Origin: Acidobacteriota bacterium
Lineage (GTDB): Bacteria; Acidobacteriota; UBA6911; RPQK01; CBDAPI01
Assembly (NCBI GenBank): GCA_965249245.1
Contig: CBDFLV010000002.1
Span: 134,057-198,056 of the forward strand
Reading direction: 5' to 3'
DNA length: 64,000 bases
Below, piece after piece: positions 5,833 through 52,320 of the stretch (position 1 is its first letter; the number at the start of each line of letters is the position of its first letter). A model generated the notes under the pieces. It did not search any database. It was not told where the DNA came from and saw only the letters and a program-made list of their open reading frames with translations. A program made the translations under genes and the position numbers.

Positions 5833-5835
5833 CGG

Positions 5836-5928: not shown

Positions 5929-5937
5929 TCGTGGGCT

Positions 5938-7698: not shown

Positions 7699-7965
7699 TC
7701 TTCTCTCACTCGATCACGAATGAGCTGCACTAGTCCCAAAATAAGCGTGTTTGCACATCATCTACTGTAGCGACTCGTTTTGCCAAGATCGGTTGCTCAT
7801 TTGAGGTTCAATCAGACTTGCGCCGGACTCCGGCTGTGCCGGGAAGCAGTTTGGTTGACCTCAGGCCGCCACGACGCGTTGACAATGGCCCTGAAAGTCG
7901 GTTTTCAGACAGACCCCTCCCCGATCGGCTCCATTTGTCGTCTTGTCGAAGCGGCTTGCGATTCG

Positions 7966-8535
7966 TCAGCCAAATTGCTGGTGTTTCAGCCACAGATTCC
8001 CCTCGATCAACAAACGGGTCCAATCGTTAACAGTGAGCAGTCGATACAATAAACGCCGTCCCGTTGTCACGATCTGGCAAGGCAGTCCGATCACACAGGT
8101 GACAAAGCGCCGGAACTCCATCCGGATCAGGCGTCGGGCCCCCAGTCTTGCAGGCAAAAGCAGGCCCAGCCAAACCTTGAGGTTCCAGGCTTGGGCGGCA
8201 ATCACCAGGTAAGTCCAGTTTGCGACCAGGGTATCGGCCGGCATGCGCAGAGCCTGAACGCCGTTCTTGAGCTGCTCGATCACGTTTTCCTGATTGCAGC
8301 GCCCGTTGCTTTCCAAAACCACCTGTTGTGTCGACAGTTCCTTGACCGGCACGTTCGTGACATAGAACAGATAGCGCTGCTGATCAAACAGCCGCTTTTG
8401 ACCCTTTTCGACCTCGATCCTCTTGCGCAGGATGATCATTCGGTAGGTGCCTTTAGCTCGGGCCGGTCGGTACTCGATCTCCGTCACATGCTCACTCAAC
8501 AAGTTCAGGTTTTTGTAGCCCCGCTCTCGCACCAA
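7966..8535 (-). CDS. Transposase, C-terminal fragment (DDE domain with a GxAEN..IEQLKNG-type motif)
   Basis: 189 aa containing RCNQENVIEQLKNGVQALRMP, typical of IS1380/IS4-type DDE transposases. Together with 8505..9317 it makes about 450 aa, so the gene is probably a pseudogene or carries a sequencing frameshift. Confidence 0.6.
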   Translation of the reverse strand: MVRERGYKNLNLLSEHVTEIEYRPARAKGTYRMIILRKRIEVEKGQKRLFDQQRYLFYVTNVPVKELSTQQVVLESNGRCNQENVIEQLKNGVQALRMPADTLVANWTYLVIAAQAWNLKVWLGLLLPARLGARRLIRMEFRRFVTCVIGLPCQIVTTGRRLLYRLLTVNDWTRLLIEGNLWLKHQQFG

Positions 8536-9317
8536 CGATCGAAGTTGCGGGTCAGGGAAAAGTCCGTGTCTCCCCGCAATCTCACTTGCTCAAAGCCGCC
8601 TCTTCTGACCAGTTTCACGGCTCGATCGATCCACGCCACCGCTCCTTCGTGCGACGGTCGGCTGGCCGGCCGATTGAACGTGTACAAGACCTCGTTGGTT
8701 TCGGCCAGACTCACCACCAAGGGTCCATACCCCCATTGTCCCTTGTAGTTGAGATCCATCCCTTCCTTGCAACACCCCGTGGTCTCGGCCGTCGTGCCGT
8801 CCACGTCGATCGTGGCTCGCTTGCCCATCTCCGCTGCTTGGCTTTGCCACACCTGCAGACGGCTTTCGTTGAAGGCTTCTTGCAGGGCCAAGACATCCTC
8901 TTGCTTGAAACGCCTGAGAAAGTCCCCTTCCGTACTCGGTGCCGGGATCTTGCGCGCTCCTACACTCTCCAGATAGCTGACATCCTCGCGCCGTGACTTT
9001 ACATCCTGCAGGCACACTCCCCCACTCATCACGTTGTAGATCAGATTCAAGACGTGGTCCGACTCCCGGTAGGGAAGGTGCCGCTTCAACACTCGCACAC
9101 GTTCGTCGATCCTCTCCGCCACCCTCAAGCGCTTGACCAACTGAACAATCAGCCCCAGACCTCCACTACTCACCCCTCCCATACGGCTCGAGACGTCGTA
9201 GACAATATTGCCTCCTCTCAGCACCCGTCCCCCACTCTTAGGCCGCCAACTTCGATCCAGCCTTCGCTCTATTTCCTCTTGGCGTTTGTTGATAATCTCG
9301 ATATGCTTTCTATTCAC
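8505..9317 (-). CDS. Transposase, N-terminal fragment (a frameshift separates it from 7966..8535)
   Basis: 270 aa ending RWCESGATKT. It overlaps the downstream ORF by 31 bp in another frame at an A-rich stretch (reverse complement gggctacaaaaacc). Confidence 0.6.
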   Translation of the reverse strand: MNRKHIEIINKRQEEIERRLDRSWRPKSGGRVLRGGNIVYDVSSRMGGVSSGGLGLIVQLVKRLRVAERIDERVRVLKRHLPYRESDHVLNLIYNVMSGGVCLQDVKSRREDVSYLESVGARKIPAPSTEGDFLRRFKQEDVLALQEAFNESRLQVWQSQAAEMGKRATIDVDGTTAETTGCCKEGMDLNYKGQWGYGPLVVSLAETNEVLYTFNRPASRPSHEGAVAWIDRAVKLVRRGGFEQVRLRGDTDFSLTRNFDRWCESGATKT

Positions 9318-9599
9318 CTGAAACGCCTCCTCTTGGGATTGTTCTGGGTCTTTTTCTGAACCTCAGAATACCCGTCAGGACTGGCGTTTCAGGCTTTTTT
9401 CCACCTCTGGGTATACACCCCATGTACTTATTTTGGGACTAGTGCACTGTCCGGAAAGTTCACGCCGCTACTTCGGGCGTCTTTTCGCCGACAGCTTTGT
9501 TGCGCTTCCTCGAAAGACTCCCGGCCTTCCTGCGTCGCGCGCCTCACTGTCGACGAAAATCCATCCAGAATTAACACCGCGAACTTCCCGGACAGCACA

Positions 9600-13077: not shown

Positions 13078-13107
13078 GGTTGAAGGTTGAAAGTTGAAAG
13101 TTGGAAT
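13078..13107. repeat. Tandem heptamer array (GGTTGAA/AGTTGAA)
   Basis: ggttgaaggttgaaagttgaaagttggaat. Confidence 0.8.
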
Positions 13108-13195
13108 GTGGGAGGCGCCTTGGCGCGGCGACCTGAAATCGTGAACGTGACCACCCGGCGTTCGCGGCCTGAGGCCCCTCCCACTTCCAGGATCC

Positions 13196-13225
13196 CCAGA
13201 ACCTAGAACCCAGAACCCAGAACCC
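13196..13225. repeat. Tandem heptamer array (CCAGAAC/CTAGAAC)
   Basis: ccagaacctagaacccagaacccagaaccc. Confidence 0.8.
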
Positions 13226-15180: not shown

Positions 15181-16101
15181 TCAAAAACGCCGCAGCGACA
15201 GGAAGCGGGCCAGTTCTCTAAGGATGTCCCCGCGTGAGCCCAAAAACTCCAGGTGCTGGATGGCTTCTTCCACAAGTCGCGTAGCGATTTGCTTGCTCTT
15301 GCTCAGACCGAACAGATGGGGATAGGTAGCCTTTCGCACTTCCCGATCTTTGCCGGTTTCCTTACCCATTTCCTCACAGGAACCCTCCACATCGAGGATG
15401 TCATCGACCACCTGAAAGGCCAGTCCCACCCGGGAGGCGAATGCCGAGAGTTCTTCCAGTTCCTGATCGTCTGCCTCGCACAGCACGGCGGCACAGTACA
15501 CGGAGGAAAGAATCAGGGCAGCCGTTTTCGATTCGTGAATGTACTCCAGCTCTTCGGCGGTGTAGGGTTTTCCCTGAGCGAGAAGGTCCGCCACCTGACC
15601 GGCAATCATTCCGCCCAGGGTCCCGATCGCCCTCGAAAGCAAGGCGATGACTTTCAGTTGCCTTTTTGCTTCCACTTGATGTGGCTGCGCAGCCAGATGC
15701 TGAAAGGCCAGAGTCAGCAGGGCATCCCCCGCCAAAACAGCAATCCCTTCCCCAAACTGTTTGTGCAGGGTAGGTCTTCCCCGCCGGTAATCGTCGTCAT
15801 CCATGGAGGGCAAATCGTCATGGATCAACGAATAGGTGTGGGTGAGTTCCAGGGCGGCGACCAGCGGCATGACCGGTGCCACTGGCCTTTCCAGGGCCTG
15901 GGCTGTGGCGAGGGCGAGAATAGGCCGCACCCTTTTTCCGCCGGCGAAGACCGAGTAGCGCATGGCCCTGTGAATCACGCCAGGATGAGTTTCCCCGTGG
16001 GGCAGAACATCGTCCAGATAGCGATCCACCCGAGAGCGATGCTCGGCCAGGTACCGGACAAGGTCAAAGGAGTGGTTGCCGGGCTCGCTATTTGCCACCA
16101 C
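15181..16101 (-). CDS. ispA: Polyprenyl diphosphate synthase (farnesyl/geranylgeranyl diphosphate synthase)
   Basis: Two aspartate-rich motifs: LIHDDLPSMDDDDYRRG and a second DD motif in VVDDILD. Confidence 0.85.
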   Translation of the reverse strand: MVANSEPGNHSFDLVRYLAEHRSRVDRYLDDVLPHGETHPGVIHRAMRYSVFAGGKRVRPILALATAQALERPVAPVMPLVAALELTHTYSLIHDDLPSMDDDDYRRGRPTLHKQFGEGIAVLAGDALLTLAFQHLAAQPHQVEAKRQLKVIALLSRAIGTLGGMIAGQVADLLAQGKPYTAEELEYIHESKTAALILSSVYCAAVLCEADDQELEELSAFASRVGLAFQVVDDILDVEGSCEEMGKETGKDREVRKATYPHLFGLSKSKQIATRLVEEAIQHLEFLGSRGDILRELARFLSLRRF

Positions 16102-18760: not shown

Positions 18761-20026
18761 ATGAAGTATCAGGACTGCCTGGAGCATCTCGAGCAACTGG
18801 GCAACGAAGTTGCCACCCTGCGATTTGGTCTGGACAGCATTCGCACTCTGCTCCAGGAAATGGGAAATCCCCACCTGGACTTTCCCAGCGTGCTGGTGGC
18901 AGGAACCAACGGCAAGGGTTCTATCGCTCGATTCATCTCCTCGATCGCCGGCTCCTGCGGACTCCTGACCGGCCGCTTCGCTTCACCTCATCTGGTCACC
19001 GTTCGAGAGCGCATCTCTCTCAATGAAACCCCGCTGGGCCGCGAGGCTTTCGCAGAGTCTTTCGCCCGGGTCCAGAAAGCGGCCGGGACGGCAGATCTGC
19101 CCCTGCCTCCCACCTATTTTGAAACGCTCTGTGCAACCGCCCTGGACTGTTTCTCCCACCAGGGCATTGACCTGGCCGTGCTGGAGATCGGGCTGGGCGG
19201 CCGCCTGGACAGTACCAACGCCGTCGATCCGGTTCTGTCCGTCCTGGGCCCCATCGGGCTTGACCATCAGTTGCATCTCGGAAGCACAATCCAGGAGATA
19301 GCCGTAGAAAAGGCGGGAATCATTCGTCCGTCCACTCCGGTCGTGTCGGCTCCCCAGCGGGCCAGCGCAAAGAGGGTCATCAACGAGACCGCCCGGGAGA
19401 GCAGGGCGCCTCTCTATATGATCAAGCCCCACCAGGTCCGAACTCATCATACAAGGGAGGGGCGTTACCGCATCCACTATCGGGACATCCATGCCGAGCT
19501 GAGTGTCGTGGGCCAACATCAGGGGATCAACGCAGCCGTGGCCATTGAGTCTGTGAAGAGACTCGTGAGGCCCGGCTGGAGTTTCCCTGGAAAATCCATC
19601 GCGCAGGGACTTTCGGCCGTGCAGCCGTTTGGAGTTCTGCAGCGAATCGCTGCAGAGCCGGACGTCTTCGTGGACGGTGGACACAACCCGGATGCCGCCC
19701 GGGCGGTCTCGCGTTTCCTGAGATCTCACACAAGAGAACCTCGGCACCTGGTTTTCTCGATGATGCACGACAAGGATCTGGCTGCGGTTGCAGAGATACT
19801 CGCACCCCTGTTCGAACAAGTCTACCTGTTCGAGTTGAGTTCCATTCGAGCAGCCAGTGCATCCCAACTTCAGAAGGCGTTTCCGCAGGGTGTCTTGATC
19901 AGCGACCTGGAGCGCGCCCTCCGAGAAGCGCAGCAGCGAGCTGCCTCCGTTCTGGTATTCGGGTCGTTTCACCTGGCCGGAAAGATACTCGCCGAAAGGA
20001 ATGATTCAGGGAACTGCAGTGGCTGA
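18761..20026 (+). CDS. folC: Folylpolyglutamate synthase / dihydrofolate synthase (Mur ligase family)
   Basis: P-loop VAGTNGKGS and Mur ligase middle and C-terminal domains. The accD-folC order is typical. Confidence 0.85.
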   Translation: MKYQDCLEHLEQLGNEVATLRFGLDSIRTLLQEMGNPHLDFPSVLVAGTNGKGSIARFISSIAGSCGLLTGRFASPHLVTVRERISLNETPLGREAFAESFARVQKAAGTADLPLPPTYFETLCATALDCFSHQGIDLAVLEIGLGGRLDSTNAVDPVLSVLGPIGLDHQLHLGSTIQEIAVEKAGIIRPSTPVVSAPQRASAKRVINETARESRAPLYMIKPHQVRTHHTREGRYRIHYRDIHAELSVVGQHQGINAAVAIESVKRLVRPGWSFPGKSIAQGLSAVQPFGVLQRIAAEPDVFVDGGHNPDAARAVSRFLRSHTREPRHLVFSMMHDKDLAAVAEILAPLFEQVYLFELSSIRAASASQLQKAFPQGVLISDLERALREAQQRAASVLVFGSFHLAGKILAERNDSGNCSG

Positions 20027-20029
20027 TTG

Positions 20030-20593
20030 TCACTCAATCTGAAACAACAGCTGGCCACCGTCGATTGAAGCGTCGACGGCCACGTTGCAAAGGGTCACGG
20101 TACCGGCTTTTGGAGACTTCAATTCGTTTTGCATTTTCATCGACTCAACGATGGCCAGCCCTTCGCCGATCTCGACGTCGTCGCCGGGGCTCTTGAGGAC
20201 AGCAACTACTTTTCCCGGCATCTGCGCCTTGACCTGGGCGATCCCCTGAGCCGCAAGAACCGCGGAATTTCCCTTTCCCAGCCGTCTGGGATCCTGGATC
20301 TGGAACTCCAACACCTGATCACGCCAGGCCACAGTCCGGCTCGTGTCCCGACCGGATACGACCAGATGTTCGACGCGTTCGCCCACCCGAAGTACCAGTT
20401 GCTCCCCCTCCCGGGCCAGCAGCTCGACGCGGCTGAATCTCCCGTTCAATCCAACTCGGAAATCGGTGGCTGAGATCCGATCGATATGAACCTCGTTCTG
20501 GATGTCGCCGTAGCGTACTTTAAACTTCACTTCTTGAAATCCCAGGAACCTCTTCGCAATCCTCGCAGACGGGCGTCCTGCTTCCACTGGCTG
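20030..20593 (-). CDS. Biotin carboxyl carrier (BT plus biotinyl) domain portion of the same carboxylase alpha chain
   Basis: Biotinylation motif IVESMKMQNEL. The frame is open upstream to VEAGRPS (GTG). Probably the C-terminal part of a frameshifted PccA/AccA-type gene. Confidence 0.7.
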   Translation of the reverse strand, partial: QPVEAGRPSARIAKRFLGFQEVKFKVRYGDIQNEVHIDRISATDFRVGLNGRFSRVELLAREGEQLVLRVGERVEHLVVSGRDTSRTVAWRDQVLEFQIQDPRRLGKGNSAVLAAQGIAQVKAQMPGKVVAVLKSPGDDVEIGEGLAIVESMKMQNELKSPKAGTVTLCNVAVDASIDGGQLLFQIE

Positions 20594-22062
20594 GCGGGGC
20601 TGCAGGCCAGGGTCGAAGGCGTTTGGATTGCTTTGAAATAGTAATCAAGGGCCACACCGATCACCGCCGGGTCCACTTCATCGTCCAGGTTGTTGGCGAG
20701 AGCGTCCAGCAGCGCGTGTTCCTCCAGGAACTCAGTGCTCAGCTGCCCCTTCAAGAATTCCGGATGACGGAACAGGACTCGGAAGAAAGGAATTGTAGTG
20801 GCCACCCCGGCAACCTTGTACTCATGAAGGGCACGCGTCATTCTTTGCAGAGCCTCAGCCCTGTCTCCGCCCCACGCCACCAGCTTTGAGATCAGAGGAT
20901 CGTAATCGACCGGGATGGTGGCACCTTGAAAGACTCCACTATCGTTCCGAATGCCGGGGCCTGAAGGCTCCAGCAGGGTGAAAACTGTGCCTGGTGATGG
21001 AAAAAAATCATTGCCAGGATCTTCAGCATAGACCCGGCACTCCACGGCTGCCCCTCGCGGAGCCAGTCTTTCCTGCTGTAGCTTCAGCGGCTCTCCATTC
21101 GCTATGCGAATCTGTTCTTTGACCAGGTCAACGCCATAGACCATCTCCGTCACCGGGTGCTCAACCTGAAGCCTTGCGTTGATCTCCAGGAAGTAGAAGG
21201 GAGGCACCTCCTCAGTACTGCTCCCATCCACCAGAAACTCAACCGTACCTGCGTTGAAGTACCCGGATGCCCGGGCTGCTGAGAGTGCAGCCTCGCCCAG
21301 CGCCTCCCTGAACGCGACTCCGACTCGGGGAGAGGGACACTCTTCAACAATTTTCTGATGCCGGCGCTGGATCGAACATTCTCTTTCCCCCAGGTGAACG
21401 AGGTTTCCGAGTTGGTCTCCCAGAATTTGAACCTCAATATGACGCGGTCTGGGAACAACCTTTTCGAGAAACACCCGGGAGTCCCCAAAGGAGGCCTCTG
21501 CCTCTCCTCTAGTCAGGACGAAAGCCTGCTTCAATTCCTCCGCCGACCTGATTAGACGCATACCCTTGCCACCTCCGCCGGCTCGCGCCTTGAGCATGAC
21601 CGGATAACCAAGCGTGCCTGCTACCCTCACCGCCTCATCCAGCGCCTCAAGGCTCCGGTCACTTCCCGGAATAACCGGCACTCCGGCACCCTCAACGGTC
21701 CGTCGGGCGTGCACTTTGTCTCCCATCATCTCTATGCTTTCCGCGGAGGGACCGATGAAGGTGATGCCGGCTTCACTGCAGGCCCGGACAAAAAGGGGAT
21801 TCTCGCTCAGGAAGCCGTACCCCGGGTGAATAGCGTCCGCCTCGAGTGACTTGGCCGCTGCCAGGATTCTTTCGATCGAAAGATAGCTTTCAGCGGCTGG
21901 CGCCTCCCCAATGAAGCAGACCGAGTCGGCCAGTCGGACGGAGAGAGAACCTCTGTCAGCCGAGGAGTACACGACGGCCGGTGAGATGCCCATCTCCCGG
22001 CAGGCCCGGATGATCCTGACGGCGATTTCTCCGCGGTTGGCGATTAGAATTCGAGAAAACAT
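20527..22062 (-). CDS. Acetyl/propionyl-CoA carboxylase alpha chain, biotin carboxylase (ATP-grasp) portion
   Basis: 511 aa running from MFSRILIANRGEIAVRIIRA to EFLEEHALL. The last 60 bp overlap the next ORF in a different frame. Confidence 0.8.
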   Translation of the reverse strand: MFSRILIANRGEIAVRIIRACREMGISPAVVYSSADRGSLSVRLADSVCFIGEAPAAESYLSIERILAAAKSLEADAIHPGYGFLSENPLFVRACSEAGITFIGPSAESIEMMGDKVHARRTVEGAGVPVIPGSDRSLEALDEAVRVAGTLGYPVMLKARAGGGGKGMRLIRSAEELKQAFVLTRGEAEASFGDSRVFLEKVVPRPRHIEVQILGDQLGNLVHLGERECSIQRRHQKIVEECPSPRVGVAFREALGEAALSAARASGYFNAGTVEFLVDGSSTEEVPPFYFLEINARLQVEHPVTEMVYGVDLVKEQIRIANGEPLKLQQERLAPRGAAVECRVYAEDPGNDFFPSPGTVFTLLEPSGPGIRNDSGVFQGATIPVDYDPLISKLVAWGGDRAEALQRMTRALHEYKVAGVATTIPFFRVLFRHPEFLKGQLSTEFLEEHALLDALANNLDDEVDPAVIGVALDYYFKAIQTPSTLACSPASQWKQDARLRGLRRGSWDFKK

Positions 22063-22085
22063 GTTGGAGCCAGATCGCGGCCGAT

Positions 22086-22152
22086 TCAGGCCGGATCCCC
22101 TTCAGGCCGGATCCCCCTCAGGCCGGATCCCCTTCAGGCCGGATCCTCCTCA
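22086..22152. repeat. 16-mer x4 tandem repeat (CAGGCCGGATCCCCTT) filling the pccB-pccA intergenic spacer
   Basis: caggccggatcccctt caggccggatccccct caggccggatcccctt caggccggatcctcct, ending at the pccB stop codon. Confidence 0.85.
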
Positions 22153-23715
22153 GAGAGGGATATTGCCGTGTTTCTTCGGGGGATTGCTGTCGCGCTTTGT
22201 ATTGGCCATGTCGAGCGCTGAGATCAGTTTGCTTCTGGTTTCTCGGGGATTGATAACGGCGTCGATAAAGCCTCGCTCGGCAGCATCATATGGATTGGCG
22301 AATTTGGCCCGGAACTCGTCGGTCTTCTGTTGCTTGAACGCTTCTGCATTCTCTGCCCCAGCCAGTTCGCGCCGGAAAAGGATCTCAACTGCACCCTGTG
22401 ACCCCATCACAGCTATCTCAGCTGTAGGATAAGCGTAGTTCATGTCGGCTCGAATGTGCTTCGAAGCCATCACACAGTACGCACCTCCGTACGCCTTCCG
22501 GGTAATGAGCGTAATCTTCGGGACGGTGGCCTCGGCAAAGGCATAGAGCAACTTGGCTCCGTGTCGGATAATCCCGTTGTGCTCCTGATCAACACCGGGC
22601 AGAAAACCCGGAACATCCTCAAAGATGATCAAGGGAATGTTGAACGCATCGCAGAAACGGACAAACCGTGCTCCCTTGACTGACGAGTTGATGTCCAGAG
22701 TACCTGCCAACACATCCGGCTGGTTTGCCACCAACCCGACGGATTCTCCATTCAACCGGGCAAAGCCGACGACGATGTTGGGAGCGAAGTCAGCCTGGAT
22801 CTCGAAGAAGTGCCCATCATCGACCACCGCCCCAATGACTCGCTTGATGTCATAAGGCTGGTCCGGTTCACTCGGAACCAGGTGATCCAGATCGGGCTCG
22901 ACTCTGTCGATTGGATCCTCGCACTCTTTTCTGGGTGGAGACTCCAAGTTGTTGGAAGGCAGGAAGGAGAGCAGCTCCCTGGTCTGCGCGAGACAGCTTT
23001 CGTCGTCAGGCGCCACCAGGTGCGCGATCCCACTTTTGGAGGAATGAGTGGCGGCACCTCCCAGCTCGTCTTTGGAAACCTCCTCGCCCGTCACGGTTCG
23101 AATCACATCAGGACCGGTAATGAACATGTAGCTGCTGTTCTGCACCATGAGAACGAAATCGGTAATGGCCGGGGAATAGACAGCTCCTCCCGCGCAGGGA
23201 CCCATGATGGCTGAGATCTGAGGCACGACACCGCTGGCCAGCGTATTTCTGAGGAAGATATCGGCGTAGCCGGCCAGGCTGACAACCCCTTCCTGAATCC
23301 TGGCTCCTCCACTGTCGTTCAACCCGATGATGGGAGAACCCATCTTCACGGCCAGATCCATCACCTTGCAGATCTTGGCGGCGTAGGTCTCCGAAAGGCT
23401 CCCTCCAAAGACCGTAAAGTCCTGGGCGAAAACGAACATGTTGCGCCCGTCGATGCGGCCATACCCGGTGACTACGCCGTCCCCGGGGATGCGCTTGTCT
23501 GCCATCTCGAAATCGGTGCAGCGATGCACAACGAACTTGTCGATCTCTTCGAAACTCCCCTCATCGAGAAGAAAATCGATTCGTTCGCGGGCGGTCAGCT
23601 TTCCGGCGGCATGCTGCCTTGCGACGCGAGCTTCACCCCCGCCGGCCTCAGCCCTGCGGTGACGCTGCTCCAACTCCTCAAGCTTGCGATCGAGTTCCGA
23701 TTCGAGCTGTTTCAT
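22150..23715 (-). CDS. pccB: Propionyl-CoA / acyl-CoA carboxylase carboxyltransferase beta subunit
   Basis: 521 aa; both carboxyltransferase N- and C-subdomains are present (GGARIQEG etc.). Confidence 0.9.
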
Positions 23716-27874: not shown

Positions 27875-27927
27875 GGTTCCAAGTTCCACGAACCTTTAAC
27901 CTTTAACCTTCAACCAGTAACCAGCAA
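27875..27927. repeat. Tandem heptamer array (GTTCCAA, CCTTTAA, CCTTCAA, CAGTAAC units)
   Basis: ggttccaagttccacgaacctttaacctttaaccttcaaccagtaaccagcaac, lying between the convergent gene ends of thrC and the nucleosidase. Confidence 0.8.
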
Positions 27928-29300: not shown

Positions 29301-30310
29301 AGGCTGAGCACGACTTGATTGAATGGCTCCGCGGTCGCATTTCTGACCTTGCCGAACCGGAAATAGGAATTGGGGACGATGCGGCTGTGTTGACCCCGCC
29401 GCCCGGGCACCAGCTTGTCATTTCCACCGATGCACTCACCGAAGATGTTCATTTCAACCGGAGTCGGATACCCCCCTCAATTCTGGGCCGCAAGGCCCTG
29501 CTGGTGAACCTGAGCGACCTGGCGGCGATGGGCGCCCGGCCCTGGTTCTGTTTGCTGGCGTTGAGCCTTCCCGGGGACCTGGCGAGGTCCTCTTATTCTT
29601 CCGCTTTGCTGGACGGATTTCTGCAGGAGGCTCGACGCTGGGGTGTCGATCTGGTGGGAGGGAATCTGACCGGCAGCGCCGTTGTCCAGATCACCGTCAC
29701 CATCGGGGGAACGATCGAACAGGGACAGGCCGTCAGGAGAGACGGCTGCCGGAATGGAGATTCGCTCTATCTGGTGGGTCATCTGGGCCGCTCCTCCAGA
29801 GGCTTGCAGCTGTTGGGCGAACTCGACCTCGAAGCTGCGCCAACTCGGGAACAGGATCTTCTCGAACTTCTGGATGATCCCCATGACGTTCTTTGCCTTC
29901 TCAATCACCTGCTCCCGGCTCCTCATGTCAGGGCCGGCGTCTGGTTGAGGCAGCGAGGGCTGGCCAACTCGATGATTGATGTCAGCGACGGACTCGTCAC
30001 CGACCTTCAGCGACTCGCAGAAGCCAGCCGTGTCGAGATCATCATTCCTGGTCCGACTCTGGAATTGCTTCGGTCGGAGGGTGGTGAGAGAATGACCTGT
30101 GAGCATGTTTTAAACGGGGGAGAAGACTATGCCATCATTTTCAGCTGTTCTGATCGAGCAGGAAAGGACATCTGCCGGACCTTCCCTGAAAGATTTGGAA
30201 AGCTGCGCAGACTGGGGATGGCTCATAGATCCGAAAAGCCCTCTGTTCAGTTGGACGACGGAAGGGAAAGAACGATCTTGACCTCACAGGGATTCGACCA
30301 TTTCACGTGA
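29297..30310 (+). CDS. thiL: Thiamine-monophosphate kinase
   Basis: AIR-synthase-related fold; GDDAAVL...[12 protein letters not shown]. Confidence 0.85.
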
Positions 30311-30771
30311 AAGTTCTACGCCGAGTGGCCCAAACGCTGGCTAGCCAGCACGGGGGGGGGACAAAGGTGGCTCTTTCTTTCTCCCTCGGAGTTTTCTTTG
30401 GCTTTTCACCCTTTGTCGGACTGCACACCGTCATAGGTCTAGCGGCGGCAGTCCTGTTTCGGCTCAATAAGGTCGCGGTGCTCCTGGGTGTGTATTTGAA
30501 CAATCCGTGGGTCTTGGTCCCATACTACGCCTTTGCCACCTGGGTCGGGTTGCTGATCACGGGCATGCCGGCAGGAGTGGAACTCTCAAAGTATGGCGTG
30601 TCCGACATCTTGAGCCGGCACTTCTGGTTCTGGGTCGTTGCCCAGTGGCGCCTTTTGATACCGGCCGTCGTGGGTTCGACCCTTCTGTCCGTTCTTTTTG
30701 CCCTGGCTGCGTATCCGCTTTGCGTGTATGCCATCAGATGTTTCGGGGGGACACCGACCTCCGACGTCTAG
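30307..30771 (+). CDS. DUF2062-family membrane protein
   Basis: 154 aa, polytopic; matches the DUF2062 pattern (GVFFGFSPFVGLHTVIGLAAAVLFRLNK). Confidence 0.55.
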   Translation: MKVLRRVAQTLASQHGGGTKVALSFSLGVFFGFSPFVGLHTVIGLAAAVLFRLNKVAVLLGVYLNNPWVLVPYYAFATWVGLLITGMPAGVELSKYGVSDILSRHFWFWVVAQWRLLIPAVVGSTLLSVLFALAAYPLCVYAIRCFGGTPTSDV

Positions 30772-30773
30772 GG

Positions 30774-30829
30774 GATTGAAGATTGAAGATTGAAGATTGA
30801 AAATGATTCGCTTCGCTCATTGCGGTTCC
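30774..30829. repeat. Heptamer array (GATTGAA x4) followed by the conserved motif ATTCGCTTCGCTCATTGCGGTTCC
   Basis: gattgaagattgaagattgaagattgaaaatgattcgcttcgctcattgcggttcc. Confidence 0.8.
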
Positions 30830-30849
30830 AGGGCAGGGTCAACAATGGC

Positions 30850-32430
30850 TTGAAGAAAATCCGCCGCCTTCCTGCCATTGCAACCTTCTCAGGCTGGCTC
30901 GTTCTTTCTCCGTTCGTGGGGGCTGAATCGGCAGCTTTGCAGGACCTGAGTGCTCAGGTTCTGAGGCCCGGGGTCTCCACGCTCGCCAATATTCGGCTGC
31001 GAACGGACCGCCGGGTATTCGCTGTGATGGCGGCTCTCAATGTTGCCGGTTTTGCCGAACAGAGCAGCGGACAAGGAATGTCAACCGCGCGGAATCACCT
31101 GCTGGAGTGGACCCGGGATGTCGATGCAGATTTGCTCCAGCAACTTCGGGACTTCTACAAGTCCCATGACCCCCCGGCCAACCTCTTCCTCGAAAACCCG
31201 CAGTCAGCTTATCTGTCCCTTTCTCTCTGGTTGGGCCCTCCACCCGACTTCGAACTGGATGTAGACCCCGCCCATCTACCGCCCGACGCCTTGTTCGTGC
31301 GGGGCTTCGAGGAACTCGTTCGGCGCTTCTGGAAGGAAGCCAACCTGGCTGGACTGTGGGAAGTGATGGGACCCTTGCATCAAAGAGAAATCGAGCTCTA
31401 CCGCCCCCTCCTGGAGGGAATCGTCAAATCCGCACTCGAGTACTTTCGAGTGCCCCTGCGAGTGGTCCTGGGCAAAGAGATCATTCTCATCCCGGACCTT
31501 CTCGACGTCAAAGACATAGTCAATGCCCGCAACCTGGAGCGGCAGTACTTCGTGGTAGTGGGACCATCGGACGACCCTTCCGGCCAGCGGCGGCAACTGG
31601 AACACGAGTATCTTCATTTCCTCCTCGACAGCCTGATTCAGAAATACGGAGCCAGCCTGCTGGAGCACGAGGCACTGCTGGACCTGGCCCAACAGCAGCC
31701 AAACACGCGCCACGACTACCAGAATCAGTTCCTGCTGGTGGCCTCAGAGTCATTGATTGAGGCAGTTCACACCCGGCTGTCCCCTCCGTTGAGCCCTGAG
31801 GAGCTGGAAAACCGCCTGGTTGGACTCTTCAGACGAGGCTTGGTCCTGGCCCCCTACTTCTATCGCTCCCTGGAGGAATACGAGACCCTTCAGGAGCAGA
31901 CTCTTCCCGCTTTTCTGGAGACAATCATCGAGGATCTGGGAGAGGGCGCCATACACAAGGATGCCAAGGCCATCGAAGAGGTGGAGAAGCGTCGGAATGC
32001 AGACGCACTTCGCCTCCGAGAGGAAGACCGCGCCAGAGAAGAACAGGTGCTGCGTCACAATGAGTTTGTCACCCGATTCAATGAGGCCTCGAGGCTTCTG
32101 GCTGATGAACAGTTTGAGGCCGCCCGCACGCTGCTCCTGCAACTGAGCGAGGCCCGGCCCGAAGATGGAAAGATCTCGTTTTACCTCGGCCAGACTGCGT
32201 TTCAGCTCGACGACTACGATGGAGCTCTCGAGTACTATCGGCAGTCCAGTCTCGCTCCAGGACTCGAGCTCTGGCTGGTGGCCTGGTCGCGAGTTCGCAT
32301 GGGTCGAATCCACGCCTCGAGAGGTGAATTCGCCGAAGCCAGGAGGTTGTTCTCAGAGGTAACCACAATGGAAGGCGACCTGAGAGGGGCGGACCAGGAC
32401 GCGAGCCAGCTGCTCCTGCAACTGCCGTGA
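30850..32430 (+). CDS. Secreted hypothetical protein with an HExxH motif (HEYLH) and C-terminal TPR-like repeats
   Basis: Signal-like N-terminus LKKIRRLPAIATFSGWLVLSPFVGA, then LEHEYLHFLLD, then C-terminal TPR-like helices. The start is uncertain: the ORF-track start at 30790 lies inside the repeat array. Confidence 0.45.
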   Translation: MKKIRRLPAIATFSGWLVLSPFVGAESAALQDLSAQVLRPGVSTLANIRLRTDRRVFAVMAALNVAGFAEQSSGQGMSTARNHLLEWTRDVDADLLQQLRDFYKSHDPPANLFLENPQSAYLSLSLWLGPPPDFELDVDPAHLPPDALFVRGFEELVRRFWKEANLAGLWEVMGPLHQREIELYRPLLEGIVKSALEYFRVPLRVVLGKEIILIPDLLDVKDIVNARNLERQYFVVVGPSDDPSGQRRQLEHEYLHFLLDSLIQKYGASLLEHEALLDLAQQQPNTRHDYQNQFLLVASESLIEAVHTRLSPPLSPEELENRLVGLFRRGLVLAPYFYRSLEEYETLQEQTLPAFLETIIEDLGEGAIHKDAKAIEEVEKRRNADALRLREEDRAREEQVLRHNEFVTRFNEASRLLADEQFEAARTLLLQLSEARPEDGKISFYLGQTAFQLDDYDGALEYYRQSSLAPGLELWLVAWSRVRMGRIHASRGEFAEARRLFSEVTTMEGDLRGADQDASQLLLQLP

Positions 32431-38594: not shown

Positions 38595-38790
38595 TCGGGG
38601 TAGCGAGAGTGCAAACCAGCCTCTGCGCCGGGCTGAGGCTCTCAAGGACTACCTGGTGAAGGAACGAGGCATCCATCCTGGTCGGATCGAGACAGCCAGT
38701 GCCGGGGAGTCACAGCCGTTCTCGGACAACGATACAGCGGAGGGGCGCAAAGCCAATCGTCGCGGCGAGGTTGAGCTACAAGTGCGTTAG
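38593..38790 (+). pseudogene. Out-of-frame OmpA C-terminal domain remnant belonging to paralog 2
   Basis: The +1 frame encodes DDRGSESANQPLRRAEALKDYLVKERGIHPGRIETASAGESQPFSDNDTAEGRKANRRGEVELQVR. This is colinear with the tail of paralog 1 but lacks about 40 residues of the N-terminal half of the OmpA domain. Confidence 0.6.
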
Positions 38791-38807
38791 TCGCGGGGGA
38801 AGTACTA

Positions 38808-38846
38808 GAATAGAGCGGGGCCTTGGAAGGCCACGGCTCTTTTTTC
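38808..38846 (+). terminator. Putative rho-independent terminator
   Basis: GC-rich hairpin GGCCTTggAAGGCC followed by ACGGCTCTTTTTTCG, just before the next start codon. Confidence 0.35.
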
Positions 38847-38848
38847 GT

Positions 38849-40762
38849 ATGAATCGTCCAGCTCTGTGTCTGCTGATCTATTTCCTGGCGGCCCTTCCGT
38901 CCCCGCGCGCTTCCCAGCGTTTTGAGGTGCTGGGACCCTACGGAGGCGATGTCCGCTCGCTTACCGTGCACCCTCAGTCCCCGCAACGTTTCTTCCTGGG
39001 AACGGCAGACGGTCAGATTTACATCTCTCGAAACGCGGGAGATTTGTGGGAAAAACTTAGCCCTGGATTGAGCCGACGGAACCTGGTCGTCGACAACCTG
39101 GTCTTCCACCCTTCGAGCCCTGGCGTTCTCTATGCGGCGTGTTGGGAATTGAGCAGTTCCGAGGGGTTGCTCTACGTGACGCACGACGCAGGCAGTTCCT
39201 GGAAGACAGTTGATCTGGGCCGGTTTTCGAGCCGCATCCGCGCCATTTCGATTGCGCCGTCGGAACCACAGGTGCTGGCGCTGGGCATCTCCGAAGGGGT
39301 CATTTTGAGTGCAGACGAAGGCCGCTCCTGGCAACGCATCACCCGGGGGTACAAGAGCCTTCACAATGTTGAGTCCCTGGCCTTCGACCCGCTGGATTCC
39401 GAAGTTCTGTACGTAGGAACATGGCGATTGGGCTGGAAGACGATCGATCGAGGGCGAAACTGGGTTGCGATCCACAACGGGATGCATTTCGACAGCGACA
39501 TGTTTGCCCTGCTGGTCAATCCCTCCAGTCCGGACGTGCTTTATGCGAGTGCGTGCACCGGGGTCTATCGGTCTCTCAACGGTGGAGCTCAGTGGGTAAA
39601 GCTCAGTAACGGTCTTCCCAAAGAAGCCAGGCGAACTCGATCGCTACATTTTGATCCAACCGACCCTCGAGTGGTATTCGCCGGTACAACCGTAGGCCTT
39701 TTCAGGTCCACTGATGGAGGCAACTCATGGGAACAACTGCTGAAAGGGGAGGTGATCAACGCGGTCTCCATTCATCCCGCCGACTCCAATGTGATTCTGG
39801 CGGCCGCCGATGATGTTGGTATTCTCCGCAGTCGAGACGGGGGCGTTTCCTTTGAATCCGCCAATCAGGGCTTTGTGCATCGCCAGATTCAGGCCCTGGC
39901 ATCCCATCCTGGCAACCCTGACACGCTCTTCGCGGCGGTGGCTTCCGATCGGGCCCACGGTGGATTCTTTCGCACCCGCGATTCCGGAAGGGCCTGGGAA
40001 CGTGCCAATGAGGGCTTGGATGGAGATCATCCCGTCCGCGGAGTGCGCCAGATTCTACCCTCGCCCGAGGGGGACGAAGTCCTCCTGGTTCTCCGGGACC
40101 AGATCCGGCGTCTGACCCCGGATGACGGCTGGCAGACCGTATTGAAACCTGGTAAATTGACGATTCACGATGCTGCCTTCGCGGGGCTCGAAAGTGACCG
40201 GGTCGCTATCGGTACGCCCTCCGGGGTCGTTCTCCTCCACCTCGACACCGGCAAGCTTGCCCCTTCGATCATACCGGTCTACGAGGGTCCCGTCTGGGCC
40301 ATGGCCTCCGCCCCCTCTGGATCCATATTCGCCGGTGGCAACACGGGTGTATTTCGGAGTGACGACCGGGGTGGGAGTTGGATCATTAAGGTCACAGGAC
40401 TGCCCCCCGTGGCCGTGCGGCGCCTTGTTCGCTCTGCCGAGGTCCTGTTGGCGGCTACCGACCAGGGACTCTTCCTGAGCCGTGACAACGCAGAGAGCTG
40501 GTTGGCCAGGGGCCTTGCAGGAGCCGATCTGTTCACCGCGGCTGTCAGTCCTCGCGATCCTGACTGGCTCGTGGCAACCGACAAGACGGGGCTCTTTCTG
40601 TACGAGAGTTTCGACGGCGGCGGCAACTGGACCACGCATGAACCTCACCGCTCGAGTCGCATTCACCACTTGGCTTTCGCTCTGGATGGACGTCTTTGGG
40701 CGGGAAGCCTGACCGAAGGAGTGTACCTGCTTCACCCACCGTCGCTCCAGATTGAAAATTGA
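38849..40762 (+). CDS. BNR/Asp-box repeat beta-propeller protein (Ycf48-like/sialidase-like), secreted
   Basis: Signal peptide MNRPALCLLIYFLAALPSP and multiple S.DGG.SW-type motifs (SxDxGxxW): THDAGSSW, SADEGRSW, SLNGGAQW, STDGGNSW, TRDSGRAW, SDDRGGSW, SFDGGGNW. The ORF-track start at 38699 is an upstream read-through. Confidence 0.7.
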   Translation: MNRPALCLLIYFLAALPSPRASQRFEVLGPYGGDVRSLTVHPQSPQRFFLGTADGQIYISRNAGDLWEKLSPGLSRRNLVVDNLVFHPSSPGVLYAACWELSSSEGLLYVTHDAGSSWKTVDLGRFSSRIRAISIAPSEPQVLALGISEGVILSADEGRSWQRITRGYKSLHNVESLAFDPLDSEVLYVGTWRLGWKTIDRGRNWVAIHNGMHFDSDMFALLVNPSSPDVLYASACTGVYRSLNGGAQWVKLSNGLPKEARRTRSLHFDPTDPRVVFAGTTVGLFRSTDGGNSWEQLLKGEVINAVSIHPADSNVILAAADDVGILRSRDGGVSFESANQGFVHRQIQALASHPGNPDTLFAAVASDRAHGGFFRTRDSGRAWERANEGLDGDHPVRGVRQILPSPEGDEVLLVLRDQIRRLTPDDGWQTVLKPGKLTIHDAAFAGLESDRVAIGTPSGVVLLHLDTGKLAPSIIPVYEGPVWAMASAPSGSIFAGGNTGVFRSDDRGGSWIIKVTGLPPVAVRRLVRSAEVLLAATDQGLFLSRDNAESWLARGLAGADLFTAAVSPRDPDWLVATDKTGLFLYESFDGGGNWTTHEPHRSSRIHHLAFALDGRLWAGSLTEGVYLLHPPSLQIEN

Positions 40763-40789
40763 AAATTATTCGCCTCGCTCATTGCGGCT
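40750..40789. repeat. Heptamer array (GATTGAA/AATTGAA) plus the conserved motif ATTCGCCTCGCTCATTGCGGCTCC
   Basis: cagattgaaaattgaaaattattcgcctcgctcattgcggctcc. The array supplies the last codons (LQIEN, stop) of the upstream gene. Confidence 0.8.
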
Positions 40790-40976
40790 CCTTAACCTGG
40801 GAAATTCATAAGTTTTCGAAGCGAAGGGCCGCAAGCGCCGCGCTGGCAAGGCTTTACCTCCGAGGGCACCGCAGGCATAGTCGTGACTCTGTCGAGGAGC
40901 CCGAGGAGGGGGAACGCAGCCAGCGCGGATGATGGGGGCGCTGCAGCCGACAACTTATGAATTTTCCGGGTTAAGG
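40790..40976. repeat. MITE-like or structured-RNA-like repeat element, copy B (about 187 bp)
   Basis: Terminal inverted repeats CCTTAACCTGGGAAATTCATAAG / CTTATGAATTTTCCGGGTTAAGG. The core is homologous to copy A (GAAGCGAAG...GCGCTGGCAAGGCTTTAC...CCGCAGGCATAGTCGTG...CGAGGAGCCCGAG...AACGCAGCCAGCGCG...CTGCAGCCG). Confidence 0.7.
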
Positions 40977-41019
40977 GCGGGGTTGCTCACAGCCAGATCG
41001 GAACTCGAAACAGGGGCAT

Positions 41020-41052
41020 CAACTTTCAACCTTCAACTTTAAACTTTAAACC
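41020..41052. repeat. Tandem heptamer array (CAACTTT, CAACCTT, AAACTTT)
   Basis: caactttcaaccttcaactttaaactttaaacc. Confidence 0.8.
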
Positions 41053-43767: not shown

Positions 43768-44386
43768 CAACCCGGTTTGATCGTCTCGACCTGTGGGTCC
43801 GGGCTCCCGGCGAACACGACAATCTTTTTCCGTCGTGGTCGGCCCACTCTCCTGATAGGATAGCTGTCGTTCTACCCGGGGCAGCCCGGGCTCCCGAAAT
43901 CGCCCAAACAGTTCGTCGCAGCTACCCAATGCTGGATATTTTCTTAGTCTGTCTGATCATTCTCGTGGCCATGGTGCTCTTCGTCTCCGAAAAACTTCGT
44001 GTGGACATGATCGCCATTCTCATTATGGCCACCCTCATGATAATCGGAGTTGTTCGACCTGTTTTCTTTCGGTTCATCAAGCGGTCTCTGGCTTTAGCAA
44101 CGAGGCCACGATCACGATCGCAGCCATGTTTATTCTCAGTAGCGGGCTAGTGAAAACGGGCGCCATTACCATGATCATCCACAAGCTGATTCAGTTCGGC
44201 GGCAACAGTGAAATGCGACTGTTTCTGGCTCTGATGATCACTGCAGGCACGACTTCAGCGTTCATTAACAACACCGCCGCTGTGGCGGTCTTCATCCCCA
44301 TCACGCTGACCATTTGCAAGCAGCATCAGATCAGTCCTTCGCGCCTGCTGCTGCCACTGTCCTATGTTTCAATCGTGGGGGGAACC

Positions 44387-45748
44387 CACTCTTGTCCAAA
44401 TTAGCCATAAGAGAGGTCGGGTCGACCTCGTAAGATTCGGTTGATCGAATAACCGGACAAGGAGGACCCGACCATGAATCGATTTTGCAGCATTTTCAGT
44501 CAACTTCTCCAGCTTTTTCCTCGCTGGGAGTTTCAACAACTGGTCCTGGAGACCAAAGCCGAGCGCCATGCACGCGGTTTCAGCAGCTGGGGACAGTTTG
44601 TCGCCATGCTGTTTTGCCAGCTGGGCCGTGCTCATAGCCTGCGGGAGATCTGCGGAGGCCTGGCCAGCTGTGAAGGAAAACTGCATCATCTTGGAATCGC
44701 TTCTCCCAAGCGCTCCACCCTCAGCTATGCCAATAAGCATCGACCCTGGCAACTGTACGAAAAGGTTTTTTACCGCCTGCTGGATCGTTGTCTGAGAGAG
44801 ACCGAAGGGCGTCGCAAGAGAAGATTTCGTTTCAAGAATCCGCTGCTGAGTCTGGATGCGACCGTCATCGATCTGTGCGCACAATTGTTTGACTGGGCTC
44901 ATTTTTGCCGAACCAAGGGGGCCGTCAAACTGCATCTACTCTTGGACCACAACGGTTACCTTCCCGTCTTTGCCCACATCACCGAGGCAGCCACGGCCGA
45001 CATCACCGTGGCTCGCCGTCTGAAGTTTGCCGCCGGCACCGTTGTCGTCTTTGATCGCGGCTACAACGACTACAACTGGTATGCGGACTTGACCCGTCAG
45101 GGCGTCTTCTTTGTGACCCGTCTCAAAGACCGTGCCGATTACGAGGTCCTCGAAGACCGCCCGCTTCCCAAAAACCGTCGAGTCGTCCGTGACCAGGTGA
45201 TTTTCTTTCACGGACTGGCCGCCCAGGACAAAACCTGTTTCTTGCGCCTGGTCGAAATCCAAGATCCGCTCTCTGGCCGCCTCGTTTTTTTGACGAATCA
45301 CCTGGATTTCGGAGCCACCACCATTGCCGCAATCTACAAGGAGCGCTGGCAAATCGAGCTCTTTTTCAAGGCCCTCAAGCAGAATCTACGGGTCAAGACC
45401 TTCGTCGGCACCTCGGCCAACGCCCTCAAGACCCAAATTTGGACAGCATTGATCGCTCTGCTGATCCTGAAGTTTCTGCAGCTCAAAGCAACCTTTGACT
45501 GGTCACTGTCCAATCTGGCCGCACTGCTGAGGATGAACATGTTCGTTCATAGAGACTTGTGGAGGTGGTTGAACCAACCATTCAAGTTCCCACCCCTACT
45601 ACCGGAGAGCTCTCAACCCTCCTTCACCTTCTCGTAATCTGGACAGCACAATCGGAGACCTGGACATGAAAAGACTGAAAATCCCGTCCAAGACGCCAAT
45701 AAAATCAAGGGGTTGATGATCGAATCTCAGCTAATTTGGACAGCAGTG
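44387..45748 (+). mobile_element. IS4-family insertion sequence, about 1.36 kb
   Basis: Ends CACTCTTGTCCAAATTAGC ... GCTAATTTGGACAGCAGTG (imperfect terminal inverted repeats). 9-bp target-site duplication GGGGGAACC (44378-44386 and 45749-45757). Confidence 0.75.
44474..45637 (+). CDS. IS4-family transposase (DUF4372 N-terminal plus DDE_Tnp_1)
   Basis: 387 aa starting MNRFCSIFSQLLQLFPRWEFQQLV...GGLASCEGKLHHLGI, with the C-terminal YKERWQIELFFKALKQNL motif. Confidence 0.85.
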   Translation: MNRFCSIFSQLLQLFPRWEFQQLVLETKAERHARGFSSWGQFVAMLFCQLGRAHSLREICGGLASCEGKLHHLGIASPKRSTLSYANKHRPWQLYEKVFYRLLDRCLRETEGRRKRRFRFKNPLLSLDATVIDLCAQLFDWAHFCRTKGAVKLHLLLDHNGYLPVFAHITEAATADITVARRLKFAAGTVVVFDRGYNDYNWYADLTRQGVFFVTRLKDRADYEVLEDRPLPKNRRVVRDQVIFFHGLAAQDKTCFLRLVEIQDPLSGRLVFLTNHLDFGATTIAAIYKERWQIELFFKALKQNLRVKTFVGTSANALKTQIWTALIALLILKFLQLKATFDWSLSNLAALLRMNMFVHRDLWRWLNQPFKFPPLLPESSQPSFTFS

Positions 45749-47118
45749 GGGGGAACCTGCACTTTGATCGGGACTTCGACCAATATCCTGGTCAGCTCGA
45801 TGTCGGCCAACGCGGGACTCGGCGAATTCGGGATGTTTGAACTGAGTCGCCTGGGAATCGTCTTCTTCGCTTTCGGTCTACTCTATCTCACTGTGGTAGG
45901 CCGGTGGCTGCTCCCCGCCGTCAAACCTCCCACTAATCTAACCGCAAAATACCAGATAGGACGGTACTTCACCGTTCTGGTGGTGCCCAAGAAGTCTCCG
46001 CTGGTGATGCAGACGGCGGCCCAGTGTCGTTTGAGCGAGAAATACGATGTCACGATTCTAGAAATCGTTCGAGGGAACGAGCGGATATCATCCGGACTGC
46101 GGGACTGCAAGTTCCACGAGGGCGACGAACTGCTCGTGCGTGGATCCATCCACAGCATCATGGAAATGAACGGAGTGGAGAGGCTATCGATCCGGTCCCA
46201 GATCAAGTATGCCGATCAGGATTTGTCTTCCGATGAGGTGATGCTGGCGGAAGCTGTCGTTTCTCCATCGGCCTCGCTGATCGGCGGGAACCTGCGGGAC
46301 TTGAATTTCAGGCGGAGGTTCGGCGTCAATGCACTGGCCATCAAGAAGCAAGGGGAAACCATCCGCAAGAGAATCGGCGACATCCGCCTGGAAGCAGGCG
46401 ACACGCTTCTGGTTCAGGGGGAGCGGGCTGCTGTGGAGAGGCTGTTGGAAGATCCAGTCTTTCTAGCGCTGCAGGAGTTAGAAGTGCCACCGGTTCGACG
46501 CCATCGAGCTCCGTTGGCGCTGGCTACCGTGGCGCTGGTCGTGGCCCTGGCCGCTTTCGAGGTCATGCCCATTCTCGTCTCAGCCATCACGGGCTGTCTT
46601 GTAATGATTCTGTTCGGCTGTATCAGAATCCAGGAGGCCTATGAGTCGATCGACTGGTTCGTCATCTTCTTGCTGGCCGGAGTCATTCCGCTGGGCGTTG
46701 CCATGGAAAATACCGGTACAGCGGCGTTCATAGCCGACGCCATCCTCCGTGTGAGCGCCGATCTAGGCCCTGTCGCACTCATCTCTGTGTTTTATCTCAT
46801 GTCCACGATCTTTGCTTCGATCATGTCTCATAATGCTGCCGTGATTCTTTTGGTCCCCATCGGCATCGCATCCGCGCATGAACTGGGAGTCAACTCCCTG
46901 CCCATTCTGATGTCGATCACTTTTGCCGCCTCGTCCGCCCTCAGCACGCCGTTTGGCTACCACACCAACCTCATGGTGTATGGCCCCGGAGGCTACCGGT
47001 TTGCCGACTATCTCAAAGTGGGCCTGCCCTTGAATATCCTGCTGTGGCTCCTCGCCTCCCTTCTCATCCCTATTCTCTGGCCTCTCCGATAGCCTGTTCG
47101 CGCTCGCTGCGCTCGCGC

Positions 47119-47173
47119 TGTTCCAACGTTCCAAGTTCCAAGTTCCACTTTGCGCGCTCATTGGCATTCGCGC
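47119..47173. repeat. Heptamer array (GTTCCAA x3-4) plus a TCGCTCATTG-type motif variant
   Basis: gttccaacgttccaagttccaagttccac tttgcgcgctcattggcattcgcgcc. Confidence 0.7.
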
Positions 47174-52153: not shown

Positions 52154-52229
52154 CCGCCGTTCGTTCCGCGTTCCTCATCGCAGATTGGCCAGTTTCCCTG
52201 GTGGCGTTGAAGGCAAGCTCAGGCGAACC

Positions 52230-52320
52230 AAGGAATCGCAATAAGCGAAGCGACTAATTTGGAATTTGGAATTTGGAATTTAAAGTTCCCTTCGCTCCAT
52301 TTTCTTTCGCGAAAGGAACC
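52230..52320. repeat. Motif (reverse complement) GGAATCGCAATAAGCGAAGCGACT, then heptamer array (AATTTGG x4), then a second motif-like segment
   Basis: ggaatcgcaataagcgaagcgactaatttggaatttggaatttggaatttaaagttcccttcgctccattttctttcgcgaaaggaacc. Confidence 0.7.

Follow-up and report, generated by a model that had tools for sequence, protein, structure and literature searches.

A conserved 24-nt motif beside heptamer arrays is the 5' block of a dispersed, probably mobile element of about 94 nt in a small clade of Acidobacteriota

The window, that is, the whole 64,000-nt stretch of acidobacterial DNA analyzed here, contained about 12 heptamer arrays detected by TRF, which differed in their units and most of which started at or overlapped stop codons. 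At three sites, named here after their neighboring genes as DUF2062-TPR, Sortilin-RDD, and ASPIC-Rieske, the 24-mer ATTCGCTTCGCTCATTGCGGTTCC or a close match to it lay directly 3' of an array (Table 1). The array of the first site began 3 nt past the stop codon (TAG) of the gene for DUF2062 (30307–30771). Other arrays were located at 2765–2812, 3637–3661, 5835–5929, 13079–13103, 13195–13225, 27891–27922, 41019–41051, and 47120–47147. Units such as GTTGAAA, GATTGAA, and GTTTAAA include a TGA or TAA triplet, and a run of three units therefore closes every reading frame of the strand.

Table 1. Motif copies in the window, the element remnants to which they belong, and their flanking features
Feature	Position	Strand	Basis and remarks
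Heptamer array (GATTGAA)x4	30774–30801	+	TRF; flank or landing site, outside the element
Flanking hexamer AAAATG	30800–30805	+	Target-type sequence directly 5' of the element
Motif copy 1 (block 1)	30806–30829	+	Exact consensus match
A-type element copy 1, truncated	30806–30855	+	Block 1, variable region, block 2; nhmmer model positions 1–56, E=1.4e-14
Heptamer array (ATTGAAA)x2.4	40751–40767	+	The Sortilin/BNR gene (38699–40762) ends within it, at a TGA
Motif copy 2	40768–40791	+	2 mismatches; nhmmer model positions 1–31 only
Unrelated 185-nt whole-length hairpin element	40790–40976		Replaces the 3' two thirds of copy 2 (alignment with L029)
Candidate decayed right direct repeat	52183–52188	-	CCAATC versus CAAATT on the left flank; comparison with L037
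B-type element copy 3, shortened	52189–52255	-	Block 1, variable region, block 2 GCCTTCAAC, short tail; nhmmer E=7e-14
Motif copy 3, AGTCGCTTCGCTTATTGCGATTCC	52232–52255	-	3 mismatches
Heptamer array (CCAAATT)x3.7, motif strand	52256–52281	-	TRF

Other mobile elements and repeats lay in the same window. An IS5-family IS (3662–5097) with DUF772 and DDE_Tnp_1 and with inverted ends beginning CTAGCAGCC abutted the AACCTTC array at 3637–3661, about 65 nt from tRNA-Phe, and an IS at 7726–9446, with a DDE_Tnp_1_4 gene, was bounded by perfect inverted ends of 20 bp (TGCACTAGTCCCAAAATAAG). An IS4-like element (44385–45750; DUF4372 and DDE_Tnp_1, 21-bp ends) had removed the 5' part of a CitMHS transporter gene, which encoded 459 aa as against 592–597 aa in relatives. 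An inverted-repeat element of about 90 nt (GTGGGAGG...CCTCCCAC, 13104–13190) was situated between two heptamer arrays; in the related loci, which are designated here by L numbers, it was found at L029 ~19300–19450, L034 ~15830–15950, L037 ~9300–9380, and L038 ~9280–9420, and it recurred in intergenic regions holding the 94-nt element described below. A 16-nt unit (TCAGGCCGGATCCCCC) was repeated 4.2 times at 22085–22153, at the junction of ORFs 20527–22062 and 22150–23715.

The 24-mer had three matches with at most 3 mismatches in the 64-kb window, against 0 expected from 100 dinucleotide-preserving shuffles. Eight additional copies, from assemblies of other Acidobacteriota and from metagenome contigs, had the 24-mer of copy 1 unchanged. 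The 13-mer core TCGCTCATTGCGG, searched with 2 mismatches as had been proposed for the motif, occurred 3 times versus 2.4 expected, which is chance level; only the full 24-mer exceeded chance. The original prediction had counted four occurrences and a second partial copy. The three copies in Table 1 stood, copies 1 and 3 with coordinates corrected by 1–2 nt, as did the order of array and motif, each copy being directly 3' of a heptamer array on its own strand. The presumed variant at 47148–47173 (+ strand) had only the 8-mer GCTCATTG in common with the motif and gave no whole-element profile match at E<=20; this 8-mer occurred 6 times in the window versus 2.7 expected, and 7 of the 100 shuffles reached 6. 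The presumed partial copy at 52285–52320 (+ strand) also had no profile match. In alignments it matched native sequence ahead of the Rieske gene and proved to be a conserved stretch preceding the Rieske/cytochrome b genes, where the relatives aligned were free of the element (window GTTCCCTTCGCTCCATTTTCTTTCGCGAAAGGAACCGTCTGCG, L040/L041 GTCCCCTTCTAGCCATTTTCTTTCCCGAAACGTACGGTCTGCG).

Similarity between copies ran about 70 nt past the 24-mer, and the motif was block 1 of a dispersed element of about 94 nt. Whether the motif copies mark the ends of a larger repeated unit had been raised as a check at the outset, and the answer was affirmative, the motif being the 5' block of such a unit. The element consists of block 1 (ATTCGCTTCGCTCATTGCGGTTCC), about 18 variable nt, block 2 (GCCTTGAAC), about 20 variable nt, and block 3 (GATGCACWTTGRGSCGCCGACGGTTTG; consensus GATGCAC(T/A)TTG(G/A)G(G/C)CGCCGACGGTTTG). 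The information content was 1.83, 1.95, and 1.46 bits/column in blocks 1, 2, and 3, and 1.01 and 0.80 bits/column in the variable regions. The first variable region defined two subtypes, A (AGGGCAAGGTCAACAAT) and B (TTGGCACGCTTCACTCTT), and A-type copies from three different sources were 78–89% identical. The motif alone with unrelated flanks was never seen; the same block 2 and block 3 followed it unless the copy was visibly truncated. Tandem copies, present in L006, L008, L023, L033, and L035, were direct and not inverted pairs. The motif itself contains, by sequence, a TTCGC-TTCGC direct repeat.

A profile search found the element at 12 independent sites in at least seven related Acidobacteriota assemblies; in the window, the whole-element profile detected three copies only, all incomplete. 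Stretches identical to parts of the window were present in ENA metagenome contigs, and those homologues of its proteins that were named carried the label Acidobacteriota. When 185,579 species genomes were scanned with TCGCYTCGCTYATTGCGRYTCC, the window itself not being among the matches, the Acidobacteriota MAGs OZ240092.1 and CBDBGQ01 had 3 matches each, and the rest were unrelated gene starts on the opposite strand. In unrelated bacteria, for example Paraburkholderia, the 22-mer was the reverse strand of an RBS plus the gene start ATGAGCGAAGCGA. A scan of metagenomes added two relevant contigs, L015 and L023, its other matches being opposite-strand gene starts or unrelated. In two other MAGs of Acidobacteriota and in two metagenome contigs, arrays of the AATTGAA type preceded the exact 24-mer. 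The strict motif pattern had only 3 matches in a 5.75-Mb chromosome, given which the copy number may be low. These searches indicated that the element is confined to a small clade of uncultured Acidobacteriota, and the literature searched contained no account of the element, nor of acidobacterial heptamer arrays. Three metagenome contigs of an unrelated organism (L016, L018, and L025) contained GCTCGCTTCGCTCATTGCGGCTCC amid several CTTCGC(T/C)TC(A/G)CTCATTG-like strings, possibly a separate family of repeats whose core is similar.

Homologues of two proteins, the DUF2062 protein and cytochrome b, led to the syntenic loci used for comparison. At the DUF2062-TPR site, L031, L032, and L034 had neither array nor element, L029/L030 had the array and a truncated degenerate copy, and L006, L033, L035, and L036 had the array, a full B copy, and a truncated copy. 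The difference between L029 and L033 at this site was considered as a clean insertion and rejected, since GGTTTG was kept in L029 and a deletion is the better reading. In the window, block 2 of copy 1 (GGCTTGAAG, 30848–30855) contains a TTG at 30850 that is in frame with ORF 30790–32430 and would give a product beginning MKKIRRLPAIATFSGWL (MKKIRRL...). This TTG is probably the start codon of the TPR gene, which lies downstream. The same arrangement of TTG within block 2 was present in L029, L033, L035, and L006, and the TPR gene of more distant, element-free relatives starts with ATG or GTG. The gene caller had instead placed the TPR start at a TTG at 30820, inside the motif itself. The element thus produces annotation artefacts, and it appears also to have supplied the start-codon context of one gene.

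At the Sortilin-RDD site, the remainder of the element beyond the motif was missing in the window, where the hairpin element had taken its place. L033 was empty at this site and read GAATTAAAAATTCAAGG; L031, L032, and L034 were also empty. In L029/L030, the corresponding sequence was GAATTAAAAATT, followed by 94 nt of B-type (ATTCGC...GCCGACGGTTTG) and then by AAAATTCAAGG. L029 and L033 therefore differed by exactly one 94-nt copy with a 6-bp AAAATT direct repeat on either side, and the 600-nt flanks on each side of the insert were 99.5% identical. This presence/absence pair is the decisive case for mobility of the element. The difference could reflect precise loss instead of gain, and the 6-bp repeat, which lies within an A/T-rich array, could be a product of recombination between array units. 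The 185-nt hairpin element, present at 6436–6621 and at 40790–40976, folds from end to end (consensus -95 kcal/mol); between its two copies 9 base pairs were preserved via changes on both sides, the terminal arms differed in sequence while retaining complementarity, and it had no Rfam match.

At the ASPIC-Rieske site, the motif was present in the window and L037 and was found in none of L038, L039, L040, and L041. The profile match of copy 3 extended out to 52144, but its last part (CCGCCGAC) was rejected as native coding sequence, which is also present in L038, and we infer the 3' limit listed in Table 1. The orthologous copy of L037 adjoined a single AATTTGG unit and was flanked by CAAATT and CAAATC; by this comparison, CCAATC beyond the end of copy 3 is possibly a decayed right-hand direct repeat. 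L040 and L041 had a single AATTTGG-like unit at the position of the array. The single unit in L037 and L040 indicated that the array at 52256 expanded beside the element after insertion. A further site came from the relatives: the NrdR and ThiL genes touched or overlapped in the window, L006, L031, L032, and L034, and in L029, L030, L033, L035, and L036 an insertion of about 165 nt contained a B copy without an array. In L029 (8825–8990) and also in L033, L035, and L036, this B copy was nested between outer inverted ends TAGTACTCCCTTCC ... GAAGTGAGTACTTA, which suggests a further small element as its carrier or target.

The 6 nt preceding ATTCGC were (A/C/T)AAAT(T/G) at the 12 sites, save for two or three degenerate copies, and the reverse orientation, with AATTTT 5' of the motif, occurred in none of the copies in the flank table. 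This fixed 5' flank, never its reverse complement, indicated that insertion was both sequence-specific and orientation-specific. A convincing flanking repeat was present in 2–3 copies only, and in the full copies L014, L029:8852, and L038 it was absent or decayed. In L010, the copy was flanked by AAAATT on both sides and the heptamer register of the interrupted array was kept. Array and motif had been thought to form one composite unit, but they were separable: the copies in L007, L014, L037, L029:8852, and L038 had no array, 8 of the about 12 arrays in the window had no motif, and in L010 and L029 array sequence lay on either side of the element. Insertion is thus directed at the array, more precisely at the AAAATT hexamer within it, and arrays serve as targets because they are built of AAAATT-like hexamers. 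Four kinds of elements were located at arrays, namely the 94-nt element, the 185-nt hairpin element, the GTGGGAGG inverted-repeat element, and the IS5-family IS. The arrays showed fast turnover between relatives. At the corresponding sites, L031, L032, and L034 were without arrays. The heptamer arrays of this lineage are accordingly insertion hot spots and not parts of the element.

Analysis of the element itself revealed neither a folded structure nor a coding function. Neither a full copy nor copy 2 had a relevant match in Rfam 15 even at E<=10, and the window at the gathering score matched two tRNAs only. The RNA fold was no better than that of shuffled sequences (z=-0.11), the single-stranded DNA fold showed no significant structure (z=+0.59) and no 3' hairpin, and the consensus fold of 11 copies (-6.9 kcal/mol) contained 0 compensatory pairs. 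Folding thus lent no support to the GCG...CGC dyad that had been read into the motif, and the proposal of a conserved RNA terminus was likewise left without support. The element ends 5'-ATTCGC...GGTTTG-3' and had no terminal inverted repeats under any split of the 6-bp repeat; the sole inverted repeat was a 7/8 subterminal match in B-type copies (GCTCATTG / CATTGAGC). A small ORF was considered, since the A-type reads (M/I)IRFAHCGSRARSTMP and then a stop and, on the opposite strand, a frame with MSEAN... runs on into the array; it was rejected because the frame is shifted in B-type copies and the substitutions showed no synonymous bias. The length of the reverse-strand ORF changed with the length of the array, and no ORF was conserved between A and B on either strand. 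Sigma-70, sigma-54, and ECF promoters were sought on both strands and rejected for lack of a consensus match, the sigma-54 GG/GC spacing being off by one by eye, and no intrinsic terminator was found in the element. A dif-like dyad or TIR across the putative circle junction GGTTTG-AAAATT-ATTCGC was also rejected (3/9 arm positions complementary by eye), as was a phage origin (0 matches in the viral collection).

The search for an autonomous partner covered about 0.45 Mb of related sequence, in which there was no longer unit running from block 1 to block 3 and no transposase adjoining any copy. The ends of transposase elements in the window and the fetched loci (IS5, IS4/IS701-like, IS21, IS3, IS256, IS630, and others) gave no profile match, and the gene tables of the fetched loci contained no DEDD transposase (PF01548/PF02371). 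The only Y1 transposase gene seen (Y1_Tnp, L032 18543–19274) was rejected as a partner, there being no motif in the flanking sequence inspected.

The original prediction had named the end of a mobile element among its candidates, and the clean presence/absence of the element between near-identical genomes supported this candidate. We regard it as a real, lineage-restricted, previously undescribed, small non-autonomous mobile element. We put at roughly 0.7 the probability of the full reading, in which a non-coding, non-autonomous mobile element of about 94 nt, belonging to a small Acidobacteriota clade, has the motif as its 5'-terminal and most conserved block. The motif may then be the recognition site of a recombinase or transposase, which would act in trans and would recognize block 1, with blocks 2 and 3 as probable further contacts. 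Integration would take place at AAAATT-like hexamers, always in one orientation, and the 6-bp repeat would arise either from duplication of the hexamer by a staggered cut or from a crossover within a hexamer common to donor and target. AATTGAA-type arrays downstream of stop codons would offer many such hexamers, which would bring the motif next to arrays, and slippage might later turn a flanking hexamer into an array, as at 52256. The copies in the window would be dead remnants, copy 1 having been cut at block 2, copy 2 cut by another element, and copy 3 shortened. An orientation fixed with respect to a non-palindromic target, missing inverted repeats, and a clean empty site are more readily explained by a site-specific recombinase than by a DDE transposase, and an IS110-like enzyme or a tyrosine recombinase might be the mobilizing enzyme. 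A more specific version, which we regard as doubtful, would make the element a cargo-less substrate of core-homology or RNA-guided recombination (IS110/bridge-RNA-like or by a tyrosine recombinase), with integration at AAAATT and precise excision, and would make the stop-codon-proximal arrays landing pads for several small-element families, which would in part have seeded them.

Other explanations account for parts of these data. Since 9 of the 12 independent sites lay directly after a same-strand stop codon, the element might be a cis-acting RNA of 3'-UTRs or intergenic regions (a stabilizer, processing site, terminator, or small RNA) selected at this position, and the hairpin arms GGTTCC...GAAC were conserved in both subtypes with differing loops. 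We nevertheless consider a selected RNA unlikely, because the folding, Rfam, promoter, and terminator analyses described above were negative, three sites (window copy 3, L014, and L038) were antisense or divergent to the neighboring genes, close relatives lacked the element at the same genes, and old orthologous copies decayed at about the rate of their flanks. Passive spread from array to array by ectopic recombination, gene conversion, or template switching, without any dedicated enzyme, would agree with the array sequence on either side of the element in L010 and L029, with a 6-bp "duplication" that is itself array sequence, and with the rapid turnover of arrays. Such spread appeared improbable, since the five array-free copies had a hexamer or less of similarity, the homology of 6–12 nt is far under the RecA requirement, and the strong conservation of block 1 relative to the internal regions would be left unexplained.

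The invariance of the 24-mer across species, while neighboring positions vary, together with its direct repeat, could also point to a binding site of a host regulator or nucleoid protein within otherwise incidental similarity. Against a site of this kind, the motif was accompanied by the rest of the element wherever the copy was not visibly truncated, its placement with respect to gene starts was inconsistent, and it was gained or lost between near-identical genomes; we rate this explanation as very unlikely. Finally, the chance-level frequency of the 13-mer core and the occurrence of the 22-mer as an opposite-strand gene start in unrelated bacteria are what a compositional or chance oligomer would show; the count of 3 versus 0 expected for the 24-mer, the position of all three copies against arrays, and the homology over about 94 nt in other genomes make this explanation negligible.

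The preferred reading, a mobile element with the motif as its 5' block, can be compared with several known systems. The arrays, which are intergenic and consist of 2–10 tandem 7-nt units, resemble other intergenic heptamer arrays, namely STRR of cyanobacteria and, in Beggiatoaceae, the TAACTGA repeats (PMC4679880). They differ in that they mostly begin at stop codons and not just upstream of start codons, and the motif is not part of them. With REP/BIME and REPIN-RAYT systems, the element shares a short conserved extragenic sequence usually located just after gene 3' ends, but it is non-palindromic, forms direct tandems, and has an apparently low copy number; REPIN-RAYT tests found no stable hairpin from an imperfect palindrome of 20–40 nt, no inverted pairs (the apparent inverted partner at 52285 was native sequence), and no associated RAYT gene. 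Like the PATEs of the IS200/IS605 family, it has no TIRs, inserts in one orientation only, on the 3' side of a short target rich in A/T, and has a weak hairpin starting 18 nt from its 5' end. It differs in having a 6-bp flanking repeat, which IS200/IS605 does not make, and in having no 3' hairpin.

Bacterial MITEs (Correia/NEMIS, RUP, and ERIC-like) are similar in size (about 100 nt), in being non-coding and intergenic with dispersed and tandem copies, in presence/absence polymorphism, in a short flanking direct repeat, and in donating sequence to genes, here the probable TTG start. The element (94 nt, 12 sites) is, as MITEs are, a short (<~500 bp) non-coding dispersed repeat, but it lacks their TIRs and a whole-length hairpin, and no parent IS was identifiable in the roughly 0.45 Mb searched. 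A possible target duplication of the MITE type is the 6-bp AAAATT repeat, which was verified against the empty site and recurred in L010 and, at 5/6 positions, in L037; a shared crossover core would look alike. MITEs of the DDE type normally have no strict orientation to a non-palindromic target, whereas the element has one.

The IS110/IS1111 family may offer another parallel: no TIR, sequence- and orientation-specific insertion, a short repeat that corresponds to the target core, a clean empty site, and a subterminal inverted repeat, which is 7/8 in the B-type. IS492 of this family has a fixed 7-bp target and a 5-bp flanking repeat and undergoes precise excision. The element loci examined differ in showing no DEDD transposase or bridge-RNA-like region, and the family is not known to have non-autonomous derivatives. 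The element departs from classical MITEs, REPs, and IS200/IS605 derivatives in their defining features, and what it retains is oriented, TIR-less insertion at a 6-bp site. If the enzyme is found, the element would prove to be either a small, naturally occurring substrate of a recombinase that is programmable or site-specific, or an example of a new mode of movement of TIR-less mini-elements.
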